Part shown: positions 55,936 to 61,421 of the stretch, in pieces
Position numbering within the stretch: position 1 is the first letter of the stretch
Layout: each line of letters begins with the position of its first letter
Assembly (NCBI GenBank): GCA_039588275.1
Contig: JBDHAC010000009.1
Location: forward strand, 25,883 to 89,882
DNA: 64,000 nt
Source of the DNA: Gemmatimonadota bacterium
Lineage (GTDB): Bacteria > Gemmatimonadota > Gemmatimonadetes > Palauibacterales > Palauibacteraceae
Reading direction: 5' to 3'
Made by a program: the position numbers and the translations under genes
Notes under the pieces: generated by a model
What the model saw: the letters and a program-made list of their open reading frames with translations, nothing else
Databases searched by the model: none
Told to the model about the DNA's origin: nothing

Positions 55936-56468
55936 ACCTGGAGGAGCTCCCGACGAACGAGCGGCCGAGCATTCACCCGACCGCGTACGTCGCCCCCTCG
56001 GCCACTGTCGTGGGGGACGTCACCCTCGAGGCCGACGTGAGCGTCTGGTACGGCTGCATGCTGCGCGGCGACATCGCCCCCATCACGGTGGGCGCCGAGA
56101 CCAATATCCAGGACCTGACGGTCGTTCACGTCGATCAGGGGCGGGGAACGAAGATCGGCCCCCGGGTGGGCATCGGCCACCGGGCGATCATTCACGGGTG
56201 TGACATCGAGGCGGAGTGTCTGATCGGGATGGGGGCGATCGTCCTCACGGGCGCCGTGATCGGGGGCGGATCGGTGATCGCAGCGGGTGCCCTGGTGCCG
56301 GAGGGAATGCGCGTACCACGCGGCAGCCTGGTGGTCGGAGTCCCCGGCCGAGTCGTCCGTCAGGTAGACGATGAGCTGCGCGCGCGCATCCTCCGAACCG
56401 TCTCCGACTACAAGACCGTCAAGGAAGGCCATCGAAGCGGGCGCTGGCGCGGTCCGCATCGCCTATAA
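55932..56468 (+). CDS. Gamma carbonic anhydrase family (YrdA/PaaY-like)
   Basis: Hexapeptide repeats; LRGD, NIQD..VVH, GH.AIIHGC, GMGA. Confidence 0.92.
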   Translation: MNLEELPTNERPSIHPTAYVAPSATVVGDVTLEADVSVWYGCMLRGDIAPITVGAETNIQDLTVVHVDQGRGTKIGPRVGIGHRAIIHGCDIEAECLIGMGAIVLTGAVIGGGSVIAAGALVPEGMRVPRGSLVVGVPGRVVRQVDDELRARILRTVSDYKTVKEGHRSGRWRGPHRL

Positions 56469-56577
56469 TGAATTGTGAATTAGCCACTTAACACTGCAGA
56501 TGCGTGCCCTCGGAATATCGCTGTCCGTCCAATCTGCACCTGTGCCTCGTCACCCGGATCCGAGTCCGATCCAAACC

Positions 56578-56606
56578 TTGACCACAACATGTTGTGGCAT
56601 TACTAT
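56578..56606 (+). promoter_or_regulatory. sigma70 promoter of nrdJ (TTGACC-N17-TACTAT)
   Basis: Near-consensus -35 at 56578-56583 and -10 at 56601-56606. Confidence 0.75.
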
Positions 56607-56629
56607 TCGTCCGCCACAAGATGTTGCGG
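56582..56629. promoter_or_regulatory. Tandem NrdR boxes upstream of nrdJ
   Basis: Perfect palindrome CCACAACATGTTGTGG (56582-56597) and CCACAAGATGTTGCGG (56614-56629), 32 bp apart; match the acaCwAtATaTwGtgt NrdR consensus in front of an RNR gene. Confidence 0.88.
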
Positions 56630-56634
56630 TTTCG

Positions 56635-56697
56635 TGTGGAGAAGTCCCGGGAAACGTCGGGAAACGTGTAGAAAAACAAATCCGCCGTTGTGGATAA
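56635..56697. promoter_or_regulatory. DnaA box cluster
   Basis: Perfect TGTGGATAA (56689-56697), TGTGGAGAA (56635-56643), TGTAGAAAA (56667-56675). Confidence 0.6.
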
Positions 56698-56699
56698 AC

Positions 56700-56935
56700 G
56701 GCGGTCCCCAGCCGTAAGGCTAGCTCCAATACGAGGATAGGCCTGCGGCAGCGTGTCGCTGCCCGCCAAATCACCGGCGTAGGCCGGCATTCGACTTGCG
56801 CGGTCGTCGGATCCCGGCCGAAGCCGGTGTCCTCTCTGGGGTTGCCACCTCGTTTTGGCTCGGGGGTATGGTACGCAGCCCGGTCGCCGTGACGGTGGCC
56901 GATCACACCCATTCAGGCTTCGGAACAACGAGGAA
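56700..56935 (+). ncRNA. Structured cis-regulatory 5' leader of nrdJ (riboswitch-like)
   Basis: Multiple nested stems; anti-SD CCTCGTT (56848-56854) is complementary to AACGAGG (56927-56933) at the RBS; competing partner CCAATACGAGG (56726-56736). Confidence 0.55.
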
Positions 56936-56940
56936 GGGCG

Positions 56941-59577
56941 ATGAACCGACCCAACGTGGCGGTGATGGGGGAGTCGTCGGTACGGCCGACGGAGGAGATG
57001 GGTACGTCAGGGGTGATCGCCACGCCTGCGGAGCTGCCGGAGCCGATCCTGACCGATAACGCTCACACGGTGCTGGCTCGCAGATACCTCAAGAAGAACG
57101 CGGCCGGAGAACCGATCGAGACCCCCCGGGACCTCTTCTGGCGAGTCGCCCGCGTCATCGCCGGGGAGGATGCCCGGTATGGCGCCTCCGAAGCGCACGT
57201 GCACTCGACCGCCGTGCGCTTTTACGACATGATGGCCGACGGTCTGTTCGAGCCCAACAGCCCCACGCTGATGAACGCCGGGCGGCCCCTGGGGCAACTC
57301 AGCGCCTGCTTCGTCCTGCCTGTCCCGGACAGCCTCGAAGGGATTTACGAGACGCTGCGCGACATGGCGCTCATCCATCAGAGCGGGGGCGGCACGGGCT
57401 TCGGATTCAGCCGCTTGAGACCGCAGGGGGACGTCGTGAAGTCCACCATGGGCGTGGCGAGCGGGCCGGTCAGCTTCATGGAGGTGTACGACGCATCGAC
57501 CGAGGCCGTGAAGCAGGGCGGGACCCGCCGCGGCGCCAATATGGGCATCCTACGCGTGGATCATCCCGACATCCTGGGCTTCATCGACTGCAAGGCCGAG
57601 AAGCACAAGGTCACGAACTTCAACATCTCCGTAGCCGTCACGGGCAGCTTCATGGAGGCCGCGAAGCGGGGAGAAGACTACGACTTGATCAGCCCCCGGA
57701 CTGGTGAGTCGGTGGGTCGGCTGAATGCGGCCGCGGTGTTCGAGAAGATCATCCATGGGGCGTGGAGAAACGGGGAGCCGGGCGTCTACTTCATCGATGA
57801 AGCGAACCGCTACAACCCGGCCCCGCACCTGGGGTCGTACGAGGCTACGAATCCCTGCGGCGAGCAGCCGTTGCTCCCGTACGACGTGTGCAACCTCGGT
57901 TCGGTCAACGTCGGCCACTTCGTGACGGACGATGCACGCATCGACTGGGACGGTCTGCGCGATGCTGTCCGGGACGCGACGCACTTCCTGGACAACGTGA
58001 TCGACGCGAACCGTTATCCGCTACCGCAAATCACGGATCTGTCTCGTCGGATTCGTAGGGTCGGTCTCGGCATCATGGGTTGGGCCGACATGCTCGTGCG
58101 GTTGGGTGAGCCGTACGGTTCCCGGCGCTCGATCGAGCTGGGACGGGAGGTGATGAGGTTCGTGAACGAGGAGGCCAAGGTAGAGTCCGAACGCCTGGCG
58201 GCTTCGCGAGGCGTGTTCCCCGAATGGGAGCGGTCGATTTGGGGCCCGGACGAAACATGCGCGCGCGACGGGGAGGGGAAGAGGGTCCGCCCCATGCGGC
58301 GTATGCGAAACTGCAACCTGACCACCGTCGCGCCGACGGGAACGATATCGATCATCGCCGGTTGTTCGAGCGGCATCGAGCCGCTGTTCGCCGTCGCGTT
58401 CATGCGAAACCAGGCTGGCACTCTGATGCCGGACGTGAATCCGGAGTTCGTGCGCCGTGCGGAGGAAGGGGGGTGGTACTCCGAGGAGCTGATGAGCCGG
58501 ATTGCCGACGAGGGCCATATCCACTTCGACGAGGTGTCGGAGGATGTGCAGAGGATCTTCGTCACGGCGCACGACGTCACGCCCGAGCAGCACATCAGAA
58601 TGCAGGCCGCGTTCCAGGAATACACCGATTCTGCGATCTCGAAGACGTGCAACTTCCCGACGTCGGCAACCGAGGAGGATGTGCGCGAGATCTACGAGCT
58701 AGCCTACGAGCTGAGGTGCAAGGGGGTCACGGTATACCGCGATGGCTCGAGGGACGAGCAGGTACTCTCGACGGGCCAGACGGCCAAGGACGTGCAGCGG
58801 GTCGCGGGTGCGGACACCTCGGGCGGCCCGACCGCGGCTTTGGAGGCGGTTCTGGAGGAGGTCGCCGTGGATCCCGGCGTGGCGGAGGATCTGGCAGCCC
58901 AGCTCGCCCGCCTGGCAGAGCTCGAGAATCAGACGCGCGAGCTGGAGGAGCAGAACCGGCAACTGGGCCAGACCCTCGAGGAGAAGGACTTGCGGATCGC
59001 CGAGCTCGAGGGTGGTCACATGAAGCCCGCCTCGATGCGACAGCGACCCAGCGTGCTGCGAGGTCATACGCGCAAGATCGAGACGCCCCTCGGAAACATG
59101 TACGTCACGATCAACGAGGATGACCAGGCGCGCCCGTTCGAGGTCTTTGTGGCCCTGGGGAAGGCAGGTGGCCCGGCGATGGCGGACGCCGAAGCGGTCG
59201 GTCGGCTGATCAGCCTCGCCCTTCGGTCCGGGATCTCGCTGCGTGACATCCACAAACAACTTCGAGGTATCTCCTCCGATCGTGCCGTGGGGCTCGGTCC
59301 CAACAAGGTGCTGTCGAGCCCCGATGCGATCGCACAGGTGATCGAGAAGTACCTGGACGAAAAAGAGGGTGTACAGCAGTCTCTTCCCATCCAGGAAGTC
59401 GGGCACGGCAAGGACTCCAATGGCGGGACGCAGAGCGCCGAACGCCCGGTCATCTCCCGCTATGAGGAGACCGCGGCCAGGCTGTTCATCGGAACGTGCC
59501 CCGACTGCCGGAGCAGCATGGCGTTCGAGGAAGGTTGCGCGAAGTGTCACGCCTGCGGCTACAGCGAGTGCGGCTGA
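56941..59577 (+). CDS. nrdJ: Class II (adenosylcobalamin-dependent) ribonucleotide reductase with C-terminal TSCPD domain and Zn ribbon
   Basis: PNSPTLMNAG, LSACFV, GGGTG, RRGANMG, TNPCGEQPL, CNLGS, APTGT, KGVTVYRDGSR; ends CPDC...CHACGYSECG; no radical-transfer YY pair, no intein. Confidence 0.95.
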   Translation: MNRPNVAVMGESSVRPTEEMGTSGVIATPAELPEPILTDNAHTVLARRYLKKNAAGEPIETPRDLFWRVARVIAGEDARYGASEAHVHSTAVRFYDMMADGLFEPNSPTLMNAGRPLGQLSACFVLPVPDSLEGIYETLRDMALIHQSGGGTGFGFSRLRPQGDVVKSTMGVASGPVSFMEVYDASTEAVKQGGTRRGANMGILRVDHPDILGFIDCKAEKHKVTNFNISVAVTGSFMEAAKRGEDYDLISPRTGESVGRLNAAAVFEKIIHGAWRNGEPGVYFIDEANRYNPAPHLGSYEATNPCGEQPLLPYDVCNLGSVNVGHFVTDDARIDWDGLRDAVRDATHFLDNVIDANRYPLPQITDLSRRIRRVGLGIMGWADMLVRLGEPYGSRRSIELGREVMRFVNEEAKVESERLAASRGVFPEWERSIWGPDETCARDGEGKRVRPMRRMRNCNLTTVAPTGTISIIAGCSSGIEPLFAVAFMRNQAGTLMPDVNPEFVRRAEEGGWYSEELMSRIADEGHIHFDEVSEDVQRIFVTAHDVTPEQHIRMQAAFQEYTDSAISKTCNFPTSATEEDVREIYELAYELRCKGVTVYRDGSRDEQVLSTGQTAKDVQRVAGADTSGGPTAALEAVLEEVAVDPGVAEDLAAQLARLAELENQTRELEEQNRQLGQTLEEKDLRIAELEGGHMKPASMRQRPSVLRGHTRKIETPLGNMYVTINEDDQARPFEVFVALGKAGGPAMADAEAVGRLISLALRSGISLRDIHKQLRGISSDRAVGLGPNKVLSSPDAIAQVIEKYLDEKEGVQQSLPIQEVGHGKDSNGGTQSAERPVISRYEETAARLFIGTCPDCRSSMAFEEGCAKCHACGYSECG

Positions 59578-59591
59578 ACCGACCCTCGCGC

Positions 59592-59620
59592 TTGCTCGGC
59601 TAGACGCCCCAGCATACAAT
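59592..59620 (+). promoter_or_regulatory. sigma70 promoter downstream of nrdJ (TTGCTC-N17-TACAAT)
   Basis: -35 at 59592-59597, -10 at 59615-59620. Confidence 0.7.
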
Positions 59621-59660
59621 ATGTTGGGTCTCCTCCCGGCGTATCCACAACATGTTGTGG
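59614..59660. promoter_or_regulatory. Second pair of tandem NrdR boxes
   Basis: ATACAATATGTTGGGT (59614-59629) and CCACAACATGTTGTGG (59645-59660, identical to the nrdJ box), 31 bp apart. Confidence 0.82.
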
Positions 59661-59737
59661 GTAATGTGTGGAAAACGCCCTCGATTGTGGATGCCCGGTG
59701 GGCCGTCTGTGGAAAAGTCCGAGGACCGCGTGGAAAC
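59641..59737. promoter_or_regulatory. DnaA box-like array
   Basis: GTATCCACA 59641, TGTGGGTAA 59656, TGTGGAAAA 59667, TGTGGATGC 59686, TGTGGAAAA 59708, CGTGGAAAC 59729. Confidence 0.55.
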
Positions 59738-59779: not shown

Positions 59780-59989
59780 ATGGCCACCAACGAGCGCACG
59801 GGTGGTGGAGGAGGTGGCGGCGGGGCAGAACAACCGAAGGACCTGAGGCACCCGACGATCGACCGCCAGTGGCTGAAGACGGCGTTGGATGCACACCGGG
59901 TGGCGTTCGAGCAGGAGATGGCGCGAAAGCGCCAAGAGTTCGACCGAGAATTCGAACGCTTTTGGCGCGCCCGCGGGCCGTCCGCCTAA
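59780..59989 (+). CDS. Small hypothetical protein (69 aa, poly-Gly + charged helix)
   Basis: AGGGAG RBS at 59768-59773; own promoter; host-like codon pattern. Confidence 0.65.
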   Translation: MATNERTGGGGGGGGAEQPKDLRHPTIDRQWLKTALDAHRVAFEQEMARKRQEFDREFERFWRARGPSA

Positions 59990-60060: not shown

Positions 60061-61030
60061 TCAGGCTAACTCCAACCACATCCGTGTAACTGTCCTAGCG
60101 TAAAGTCCTTCCCCGGACACCTGTCCTTCTCCCAACCCCCAACACGGACGCCAGTCCGCTGACAATGTGTACCAAATGTGTACCACCCAGGAGTACATGG
60201 TCCCCCCCAACTTAGCCTCGCGCAGTTCGCTTTCGTCGCATACAACGCGGAGCAACGTCTGGTCGTCGGGCTGTTGATATGACCGGAGCAGATGCTGCTC
60301 GTTTTCCCAGCCCCCGGCTGCGGCAACGTCCTTGAGCGGAAGGTGCTTTCTGCGGGTTGCCCAGCCGCGCCGATACGCGTGCCATGCCGACCCGTCTTGT
60401 GTGTCCAACCCCGCCTTGATCTCCGCCTGACACAGCCACAGAGCCGCCTGACGGCGCGTACACGGCCGATCGGGCTCGGCCCCTGATGGGGGAACAGGGG
60501 TGCAGCCCCCAGCCCCGGCCTATCGCGTAGCACGCGGTCGATGGCAGCGCGGGCCTGTGGGTTCAGCGGTGCTTTGCGGCTCCGGTTCATCTTGTCGGTG
60601 CGGGCAGGCCATAGGATCGAGCCGTGCGGTCTGTCCGAGAGCCTGAGGTCCGCATACGTCAGCTGGCAGATGGCGGAGATTCGGCGCCCGGTGTGATGCT
60701 GGAGGTCGAGAAGTTCGGTCAGGTACGAGCGGCGCGCGTCGGTGCGTGACATCGGGATGGAGTCGGCGACCGCGCGCACGGCCTCGTATCGGTCTGTGCT
60801 GGCGACGGGACGGCGCGCGTCGGTGTATGACTCCGGCTTGAACCGGATGGGGTTTGTGTCCAACAAGTAGGAGCCCGGCGCGGTCGGCTTCGTGGTCGCC
60901 CAACGCATGACCTGGAGCAGCCATTTCTGATCGGCCTGTACGCTGCGCGGCCCGACGGCGCGCCGCTTGTCCGGCTTCACGCGCTCGCCATGCGAATCGA
61001 TCCCACCAAGGCCGCGAGAGCTGCTGGTCG
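60061..61030 (-). pseudogene. Tyrosine recombinase/integrase, frameshifted and 5'-truncated
   Basis: Frame 1: HTGRRISAI (catalytic R), TDKM (K); frame 2: WHAYRR (HxxR), GGW, LRSY (catalytic Y); frames join at a G5 run (60488-60492); no N-terminal arm-binding domain visible. Confidence 0.85.
60164..60185. repeat. Tandem 11-bp direct repeat AATGTGTACCA x2, probable integrase arm-type sites
   Basis: Exact repeat at 60164-60174 and 60175-60185, just past the conserved integrase C-terminus. Confidence 0.6.
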
Positions 61031-61052
61031 GTGAACGAAGGGGGCTTACACG

Positions 61053-61421
61053 ATGCCTGAATCGGCAGCCGATAGGTTCCGACACCTGTATTGCGAGTTC
61101 TTGGCTCACGTCATCGCGGACGAGGGCCTTGCAGTCGTGGAAGAGTTTACAGCTTGCCTGCCTGGGGATCGGGGCGGCGGCGTGACCTTCCGGTTCGGCG
61201 ACGGGAAAGAGGTCCGGATAGGGCTAGAACCCGCTGTCGGTCGGGCCAAGTTGTATCACGAGGGAGGTCACGATTGGCCAATGAACCTTCACGACGATTA
61301 TCGGTTGGGCGAGATGGGGGGGCAGGTGGGTGGCGAAGCGCCGCTGGTCTCCCATCGGTCGGCTAAAGAGGCTGCTGACTGGTTACTAGACCAGGTGAAG
61401 GGGAAACTTCAAATACCCTAG
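61053..61421 (+). CDS. Hypothetical protein
   Basis: 122-aa ATG ORF after a purine-rich stretch; no motif recognised. Confidence 0.4.
   Translation: MPESAADRFRHLYCEFLAHVIADEGLAVVEEFTACLPGDRGGGVTFRFGDGKEVRIGLEPAVGRAKLYHEGGHDWPMNLHDDYRLGEMGGQVGGEAPLVSHRSAKEAADWLLDQVKGKLQIP

Follow-up and report, generated by a model that had tools for sequence, protein, structure and literature searches.

In Streptomyces, a cobalamin riboswitch is said to control nrdAB, providing an RNA leader before a ribonucleotide reductase (RNR) gene in a B12-using organism. At the DNA level, RNR promoters can carry NrdR operators, tandem 16-bp boxes in which C4, A6, A8, T9, T11 and G13 are conserved (PMC13584703). In E. 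coli, DnaA controls nrdAB, and the DnaA-box consensus is TTATCCACA (reverse complement TGTGGATAA; PMC8203912). The long 5′ untranslated region (UTR) of nrdAB in P. aeruginosa lowers mRNA level, mRNA stability and protein, and the abstract of that study names no recognized riboswitch or other element in it (PMC12528414). An orphan RNA element, the nrdJ RNA motif (RF03034), precedes nrdJ in Streptomyces (PMC8079986; PMC8388888). Here, we describe the leader of nrdJ in a Gemmatimonadota bacterium of the Palauibacteraceae, a family that includes Candidatus Palauibacter. The window, by which we mean the whole 64,000-nt stretch analyzed (assembly GCA_039588275.1, contig JBDHAC010000009.1, positions 25,883 to 89,882), comes from a metagenome-assembled genome (MAG) of 4.1 Mb that is 86% complete. 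In it, nrdJ (56941..59577, + strand, as for all features below unless noted) encodes a class II (B12-dependent) RNR of 878 aa (PF02867 at 2.2e-127, PF00317 and TSCPD), the sole PF02867 match in the assembly. Its conserved structured leader, including a 58-nt rod-like hairpin, is a real and apparently new cis-regulatory RNA, and a switch function is plausible.

The leader is absent from Rfam 15 and appears to be new among structured RNR leaders. A search of the window with Rfam 15 gave no match at gathering scores; at E<=10 the sole match within 56400-57000 was a chance one to a microRNA model (17 bits, against a gathering score of 100), and the loci of eight relatives gave no match at E<=1. 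An earlier note on this DNA had taken the leader for either a possible new element or a distant relative of the nrdJ RNA motif. The first of these agrees with the Rfam check, in which no family matched the window or the eight relatives' loci, and the second finds no support in the RF03034 model (80 positions, gathering score 40.3 bits), which has no match at E<=1 across the assembly. Like RF03034, the leader is a structured element with no assigned ligand directly upstream of a class II RNR gene, but it differs in phylum, size and fold and is not a member. The absence of cobalamin riboswitch hallmarks, also remarked in the earlier note, is borne out by the lack of any match in the leader to RF00174 and its clan (gathering score 31.5 bits). 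This negative is meaningful because the same assembly yields a canonical cobalamin riboswitch elsewhere (C34:32353-32537, 71 bits), the only one found there; the nrdJ rod is far smaller and simpler than the cobalamin fold, and what it shares with cobalamin riboswitches is its place in the RNA leader of an RNR gene in a B12-using organism. The leader also has no match to other Rfam 15 families, including the purine/2′-dG, preQ1 and ZTP families. It resembles the P. aeruginosa nrdAB UTR in being a long RNR leader with no recognized riboswitch, but the RNR class, organism and sequence differ, and the abstract describes no conserved module of the rod type (PMC12528414). A literature search returned no description of a comparable leader in Gemmatimonadota.

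Of the whole leader, only the rod (56772..56829) is conserved universally. From base to tip it consists of CA-CCGGC, a GUA/GAA internal loop, the helix GGCCGG/CCGGCC, a C/C mismatch, the helix AUUCGAC/GUCGGAU, and the apical loop UUGCGCGGUC. In BLAST comparisons it is the sole RNA block that survives across genera, positions 56774-56827 being 95% identical to Palauibacter while the NrdJ proteins are about 77% identical. A covariance model built from this block (R1) found one strong match (at least 56 bits) in each of 39 of 114 family genomes, spread over six genera, and weak matches only in four more genomes; the genome studied here has a single strong copy. nrdJ lies downstream of the rod in all 45 loci examined, at a distance of 53-193 nt; these 45 represent 35 distinct downstream sequences, some genomes being counted twice. 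Outside these loci the rod is scarce: R1 has no match upstream of nrdJ in 68 other related loci, the majority of which are nrdJ loci, and 144 sampled genomes from other families of the phylum gave one weak match only (29.9 bits). A degenerate rod pattern found at least 120 stretches in metagenome contigs, of which 80 loci were scored; R1 reached at most 22.4 bits among the matches listed, so these are taken as chance. The same pattern gave 24 loci in viral contigs (best 20.8 bits), and no viral copy was found.

In the earlier note, the center of the leader was drawn as three small hairpins. A better description is the single rod: 20 of 25 leaders have it as their minimum-energy fold, and the three-hairpin alternative is less stable by 6-12 kcal/mol. 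By pair counts the two folds nearly tie, with one U-A compensation favoring the rod; the preference for the rod comes from the energies and from a base-pair swap, since the base of the rod is lengthened by two flanking pairs, one of which changes from C-G to G-C between genera (in an eight-leader RNAalifold alignment described below). Among 19 distinct rod sequences, 98.5% of cells are paired, compared with 96.3% in shuffles; two pairs of the apical helix have changes on both sides, and neighboring tandem U.G pairs are preserved in 14 and in 16 of the 19. If the same block is read on the minus strand, only 88.8% of cells pair. This asymmetry argues for an RNA made from the sense strand and against a DNA palindrome. 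A pseudoknot of the apical loop, through its conserved GCGCGG, was considered and is not claimed because its best downstream partners (57-64 nt past the rod, in 8 of 19 leaders) have energies no better than upstream partners and are all arms of G+C-rich hairpins.

Around the rod, a wider fold is conserved in this genus and in part of Palauibacter. Positions 56613-56960 fold at -156.7 kcal/mol, against -138.8 ± 5.7 kcal/mol for shuffled sequences (z = -3.17), and none of 100 shuffles was as stable. Eight leaders, from three species of this genus and five Palauibacter loci, were aligned with MAFFT and not fitted to structure. RNAalifold places 63 pairs on this alignment, 13 of them with changes on both sides, so that the covariation for which the earlier note had pointed to orthologous leaders is present. 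When 56 of the 63 pairs were recounted (the seven of the NrdR box 2 palindrome, described below, being omitted), 93.7% of cells were paired, compared with 87.3% in shuffles and 28-48% with slid partners; on the minus strand the value fell from 93.7 to 81.2%. The consensus recovers a closing helix, an inner hairpin, the rod, a helix between CCUCGU and the Shine-Dalgarno (SD) sequence, a hairpin termed P0, and a covarying hairpin before the SD. What is generally looked for in a riboswitch, a conserved structured domain with covariation in a 5′ UTR, is therefore found in front of nrdJ.

In this fold, P0 (56698..56715) pairs ACGGC at 56698-56702 with GCCGU at 56711-56715 around the conserved loop GGUCCCCA; two of its five pairs are changed on both sides, and 100% of cells are paired. 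The closing helix joins the purine strand CGAGGAUA (56732..56739), which is also a second SD-like copy of CGAGG, to the pyrimidine tract UGUCCUCUCUG (56828..56838), where at least five U occupy the same place in 24 of 43 related loci. It is kept with other sequences in subgroups, as CCGAGGG/UCCUCGG, AGGGGUC/GGCCCCU and CUGGGGGGG/UUCCCUCGG, and the native duplex lies below the shuffle mean in all 12 leaders with a three-way junction, these leaders being related to one another. Inside it, a variable hairpin (56740..56767; GGCAGCG at 56747-56753, UGU, CGCUGCC at 56757-56763) has 10 pairs, six changed on both sides, and a conserved GUGUC. Further downstream are a GGGUAU block (56864..56869) that is invariant in the eight leaders, and to which an AUAGA block in rod-less leaders of the family is related, and the pre-SD hairpin (56882..56900; GGUCGCCG, UGA, CGGUGGCC), with six pairs, four of them changed on both sides. 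In some Palauibacter as in this genus, the model is a three-way junction closed by GAGGAUA/UGUCCUC, of which the rod forms one arm.

This picture retains part of the closed multibranch domain of the earlier note. The motifs from which that domain was drawn are all present, namely GGCGG-T-CCCCAG (56700-56711), CTGGGGTTGCC (56836-56846), GAGGATA (56733-56739), TGTCCTC (56828-56834), CCTCGTT (56848-56854) and AACGAGG (56927-56933). Its multi-helix character, conserved on the sense strand, its closing helix GAGGAUA/UGUCCUC and its GCAGCG/CGCTGC hairpin, the last with 6 of 10 pairs changed on both sides, stand. Its outer closure does not: CCCCAG, supposed to pair within GGCGG-U-CCCCAG and CUGGGGUUGCC, forms the loop of the covarying hairpin P0, and CUGGGG is absent or mismatched elsewhere. 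A GGCCUGCG/CGUAGGCC helix is mismatched in both other species of the genus, the hairpin with a GUAA (GNRA) loop, whose place P0 likewise takes, is not conserved in Palauibacter, the CGACU/GGUCG register finds no support in relatives, and the junctions are not conserved between genera.

The SD region ACGAGGAAGG (56928-56937) and the ATG of nrdJ (56941-56943) together form a segment, 56928..56943, with a predicted SD pairing probability of 0.99; relatives share both the start and the N-terminus of the protein. The SD is predicted to be masked by either of two segments, one distal and one proximal. The distal segment, CCUCGU (56848-56853), lies in the conserved block GCCACCUCGU (56844..56853) and is complementary to ACGAGG of the SD; 93.8% of the cells of this six-pair helix are paired in the eight leaders. 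The anti-SD pairing drawn in the earlier note is conserved to this extent, but none of its pairs is changed on both sides, and two of them are broken in G001 and G002. The proximal segment, CUUCG (56918..56922), pairs with CGAGG of the SD in the minimum-energy fold (in this genome, G000, and at the equivalent positions in G002). None of the three species of the genus has lost CUUCG, and in G001 and G002 the SD is masked by a local CUUCG hairpin instead. Predicted SD pairing exceeds the shuffle mean in seven of the eight leaders, and in four of eight the native value is matched by no more than 2 of 30 shuffles. CGAGG and CCUCG each occur twice in the leader, giving four mutually complementary segments. 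The competing pairing put forward in the earlier note, in which CCAATACGAGG (56726-56736) complements CCTCGTTTTGG at 10 of 11 positions, is likewise correct as letters.

Elsewhere in the family, the rod stands in other surroundings. In 24 of 43 related loci it is followed directly by at least five U, and in 21 of these 24 the leader past the rod is short (53-61 nt). In the complete Palauibacter genome G031, the terminator scan calls CCGGCCGAAGCCGG and six T as terminator-like. The window differs in this respect, since its rod is followed by UGUCCUCUCU, without a U-run, and is not called by the scan. Intrinsic-terminator attenuators are therefore a likeness for the 24 loci and not for this one, and terminator stems are not normally 95% conserved across genera. 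The most reduced form is found in L039, a Candidatus Palauibacter poriticola record, where only 40 nt separate the beginning of NrdR box 2 from the rod, DnaA-type repeats and an inner hairpin are lacking, and the rod is followed by seven U and 61 nt to the ATG. An antiterminator in the U-run leaders (GGCUUC:GAAGCC) was considered and is unconvincing because it gives a fold that is less stable than that of the rod by 0-7 kcal/mol and that leaves a hairpin 2 nt ahead of the U-run. Leaders of the family that lack the rod have conserved folds of their own. Those of group C (L013, L023, L024, L029, L037) carry a hairpin, GGGGUGUACGA...CACCCC, and then a T-run, a terminator-like arrangement, and those of group D (L028, L032, L042, L068, L097) have GUGUC and AUAGAG blocks in common with the leader studied here. 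From the varied contexts in which it occurs in other genera, the rod reads as an autonomous module, and the three-way junction with SD masking as the elaboration of one lineage.

Upstream of the leader, and extending into its beginning, lie elements that are better read as DNA. The preceding hexapeptide-transferase gene ends at 56468, and a sigma-70-like promoter follows (56578..56606; -35 TTGACC at 56578-56583, 17-nt spacer, -10 TACTAT at 56601-56606), the one site called by the promoter scan against 0.2 expected. From this promoter-like site a transcription start is predicted at about 56613, which leaves 328 nt up to the ATG (56941), in line with the start proposed in the earlier note. NrdR box 1 (CCACAACATGTTGTGG, 56582..56597) overlaps the -35 element and spacer, and box 2 (CCACAAGATGTTGCGG, 56614..56629) lies at the predicted start, 16 bp past box 1; neither box is assigned a strand. 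Each box has six of the six conserved positions, and the 16-bp linker is within the required 15-16 bp. Box 1 is kept in other genera, the TTGAC element beside it is preserved in relatives, and in other genera BLAST recovers little of the region, the boxes and -35 element being included. The nrdJ locus thus resembles known NrdR operators in its boxes, linker and promoter overlap and in the presence of nrdR in the same assembly (C20:44545-44985, 178.2 bits, cut-off 124.65). Because the box pair overlaps the promoter, NrdR-type repression of nrdJ transcription is well founded on sequence criteria, although it accounts for 56582-56629 only and not for the ensuing 300 nt of structured RNA. Another canonical pair of NrdR boxes is found immediately 3′ of nrdJ (59614-59629 and 59645-59660, separated by 15 bp, both with six of six positions). 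Downstream of this pair come TGTGGAAAA (59667-59675), TGTGGATG (59686-59693), TGTGGAAAA again (59708-59716) and GTGGAAAC (59730-59737), and then a 69-aa open reading frame (ORF; 59780-59989, +) that lacks any Pfam match and neighbors an integrase-like gene (60066-61109, -). The ORF would encode a small protein under NrdR-type control.

Between box 2 and P0 are DnaA-box-like repeats (56635..56697), namely TGTGGAGAA at 56635-56643, which has one mismatch to the consensus, TGTAGAAAA at 56667-56675, and TGTGGATAA at 56689-56697, which is perfect. The pattern TGTGGAnAA is rare, with 35 sites in the whole 4.1-Mb assembly, and GTGTGGAnA is invariant after NrdR box 2 in the eight leaders from two genera. 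DnaA is predicted to bind here and probably tunes nrdJ transcription. The likeness to E. coli nrdAB (PMC8203912) lies in 9-mers of the TTATCCACA type adjoining an RNR promoter, which here are conserved in relatives; the nrdJ boxes differ in lying downstream of the predicted start, within the transcribed leader. The perfect box is inside the loop of an inverted repeat (CCGCCGTT / AACGGCGG, 56682-56704), a changed version of which is retained in another genus (L007: CCGCCGCT / AGTGGCGG), and since the 3′ arm of the repeat overlaps P0, the two folds are mutually exclusive. Because NrdR boxes and DnaA-box-like repeats occupy it, the first ~90 nt of the supposed 330-nt leader are best read as operator DNA. 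Further DnaA-type clusters occur elsewhere in the assembly, at C6:82542-82600 (three TTTTCCACA, intergenic, about 0.5 kb past parA/parB-like ORFs and 13 kb from dnaA) and at C64:15166-15186 (two TGTGGATAA in an AT-rich stretch); each is a candidate for an origin-type region.

The explanation that we prefer, with a little less than even confidence, is a factor-responsive cis-regulatory leader acting above this layer of DNA control. The leader would hold nrdJ expression down after initiation, in this genome by masking the SD and in most Palauibacter by a terminator made of the rod and U-run, and a trans-acting factor that recognizes the rod would shift the balance. In this genome, the SD would be freed when the upstream CGAGG copy pairs with CCUCGU rather than with the tract next to the rod. 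A protein seems somewhat more likely than a metabolite as the factor; near-invariant stems, internal loop and apical loop fit recognition by a protein, or a requirement for two alternative folds, better than a ligand pocket at the junction. The structure of the leader rests on its conservation, and from that structure we infer its function.

Several observations weigh against this explanation. The analysis turned up no candidate for the factor. In the lower helices of the rod, the ten G-C pairs neither covary nor vary, except for the pair nearest the internal loop (U-A once, U.G once, mismatched twice), so that the support for the G-C pairs consists of the base-pair swap, one U-A compensation (in L131) and thermodynamics. 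The closing helix has a weak duplex energy in single leaders, 8 to 129 of 300 shuffles doing as well. In the anti-SD helix no compensatory change is seen, and one or two central pairs are lost in G001 and G002, the two nearest relatives; SD masking is not above shuffles in four of the eight leaders, the SD of L031 being less paired than in shuffles. The sequences of the three-way junction differ from genus to genus, and four other genera have the rod outside any three-way context, with an extension of its flanking pairs or with unrelated sequence; for both reasons, the switch drawn for this genome is not general. The compensatory events are few and not independent because the sequences come from related MAGs. 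In one public metatranscriptome run, which contained 0.07 of the sampled words, contigs over the rod, the leader and nrdJ were only 85-95% alike and belong to relatives, and they may be DNA carry-over. Since contigs cannot show starts, ends or strand, they carry no evidence on the start or termination of transcription.

Other explanations account for parts of the same evidence. A structural element that senses nothing, acting on mRNA half-life or processing (as a 5′ stabilizer or a 22-bp site of the RNase III type) together with a fixed low rate of translation, is unlikely. The rod is very stable, with 22 stacked positions and -37 kcal/mol, in L039 it is only about 40 nt from NrdR box 2 and hence near the mRNA 5′ end, and the long nrdAB 5′ UTR of P. 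aeruginosa is reported to lower both mRNA level and stability (PMC12528414). Such an element would leave unexplained why the loops, the internal loop and the four stem segments are nearly invariant over six genera and why the CGAGG and CCUCG segments are duplicated. In a broader proposal, to which we give similarly low credence, the dyad-symmetric rod would be the sensor of a new class of RNA switch, responsive to a metabolite or a protein, for the sole detected, B12-dependent RNR of Palauibacter-group Gemmatimonadota; it would work through two interchangeable platforms (SD masking here and an intrinsic terminator in most Palauibacter), and its four identical stem segments would be conserved for toggling between the rod and the three-hairpin fold. 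The metabolite riboswitch drawn in the earlier note, in which a multibranch aptamer binding a nucleotide, deoxynucleotide or cofactor would decide whether CCUCGU masks the SD, seems rather less likely again. It would suit a conserved and covarying structure that falls outside known families, the two CGAGG and two CCUCG segments that are mutually complementary, and the joining of one conserved rod to two downstream platforms, SD masking and a U-run terminator. One domain on two kinds of platform is a pattern typical of riboswitches, and small rod-like aptamers exist, as in THF-II and NMT1. However, the junction and linker nucleotides of the three-way domain are not conserved between genera, the outer closing helix fails in relatives, the rod stems show invariance and not covariation, and the distribution is limited to part of one family.

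The remaining alternatives are improbable. An attenuator in this genome too, in which the rod and pyrimidine tract would terminate most transcripts and read-through would be regulated, draws on the terminator-like rod with six or seven T of most Palauibacter and on the rod-less group C leaders, where a different GC hairpin and T-run lie at a similar place; here, however, the tract UGUCCUCUCU contains no U-run, the terminator scan passes over the rod, and the tract is used in the closing helix instead. The contigs of relatives in the RNA library, which run from the rod into nrdJ, are weak evidence in the same direction. A shade less probable is a DNA operator, with two 14-bp palindromes (CCGGC-N4-GCCGG, 40 bp apart) bound by a dimeric transcription factor and the RNA fold incidental. 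The four half-sites are indeed invariant while two of the four central positions vary in each palindrome, but an operator predicts neither the covariation and conserved tandem U.G pairs between the palindromes nor the strand-asymmetric pairing (98.5 vs. 88.8%); moreover, L131 breaks both palindromes while its first and last segments still pair (U-A), and the flanking pair swaps from C-G to G-C. Least probable of all is chance complementarity in G+C-rich non-coding DNA, or a second promoter (GCCA...N19...TATGGT) behind the conservation. Shuffled leaders do mask the SD as well (mean probability 0.52-0.79), and the duplex-energy controls are weak, but the conservation data speak strongly against this (95% for the block across genera; 13 compensatory pairs), and the fold has a z of -3.17. 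The second promoter, GCCA-N19-TATGGT, was rejected, as the TTG of its would-be -35 element is not conserved in the eight leaders and the promoter scan calls no second site.

Because nrdJ is the only RNR large subunit found in this 86%-complete assembly, the provision of DNA precursors to the entire cell depends on how this gene is controlled. Three kinds of control converge on it: NrdR, probable DnaA boxes, and a structured leader RNA peculiar to the lineage. The locus also illustrates that what is taken for a leader of this kind may, over its first third, be operator DNA and not an RNA sensor. As a candidate RNA motif, the rod is compact (58 nt), clear in its genomic association, specific to one strand and partly covarying. 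It comes from uncultured organisms, whose relatives include Candidatus Palauibacter. A factor acting on the rod, if there is one, would provide a new post-transcriptional input to the synthesis of deoxynucleoside triphosphates (dNTPs), possibly tied to B12 or to dNTP pools.

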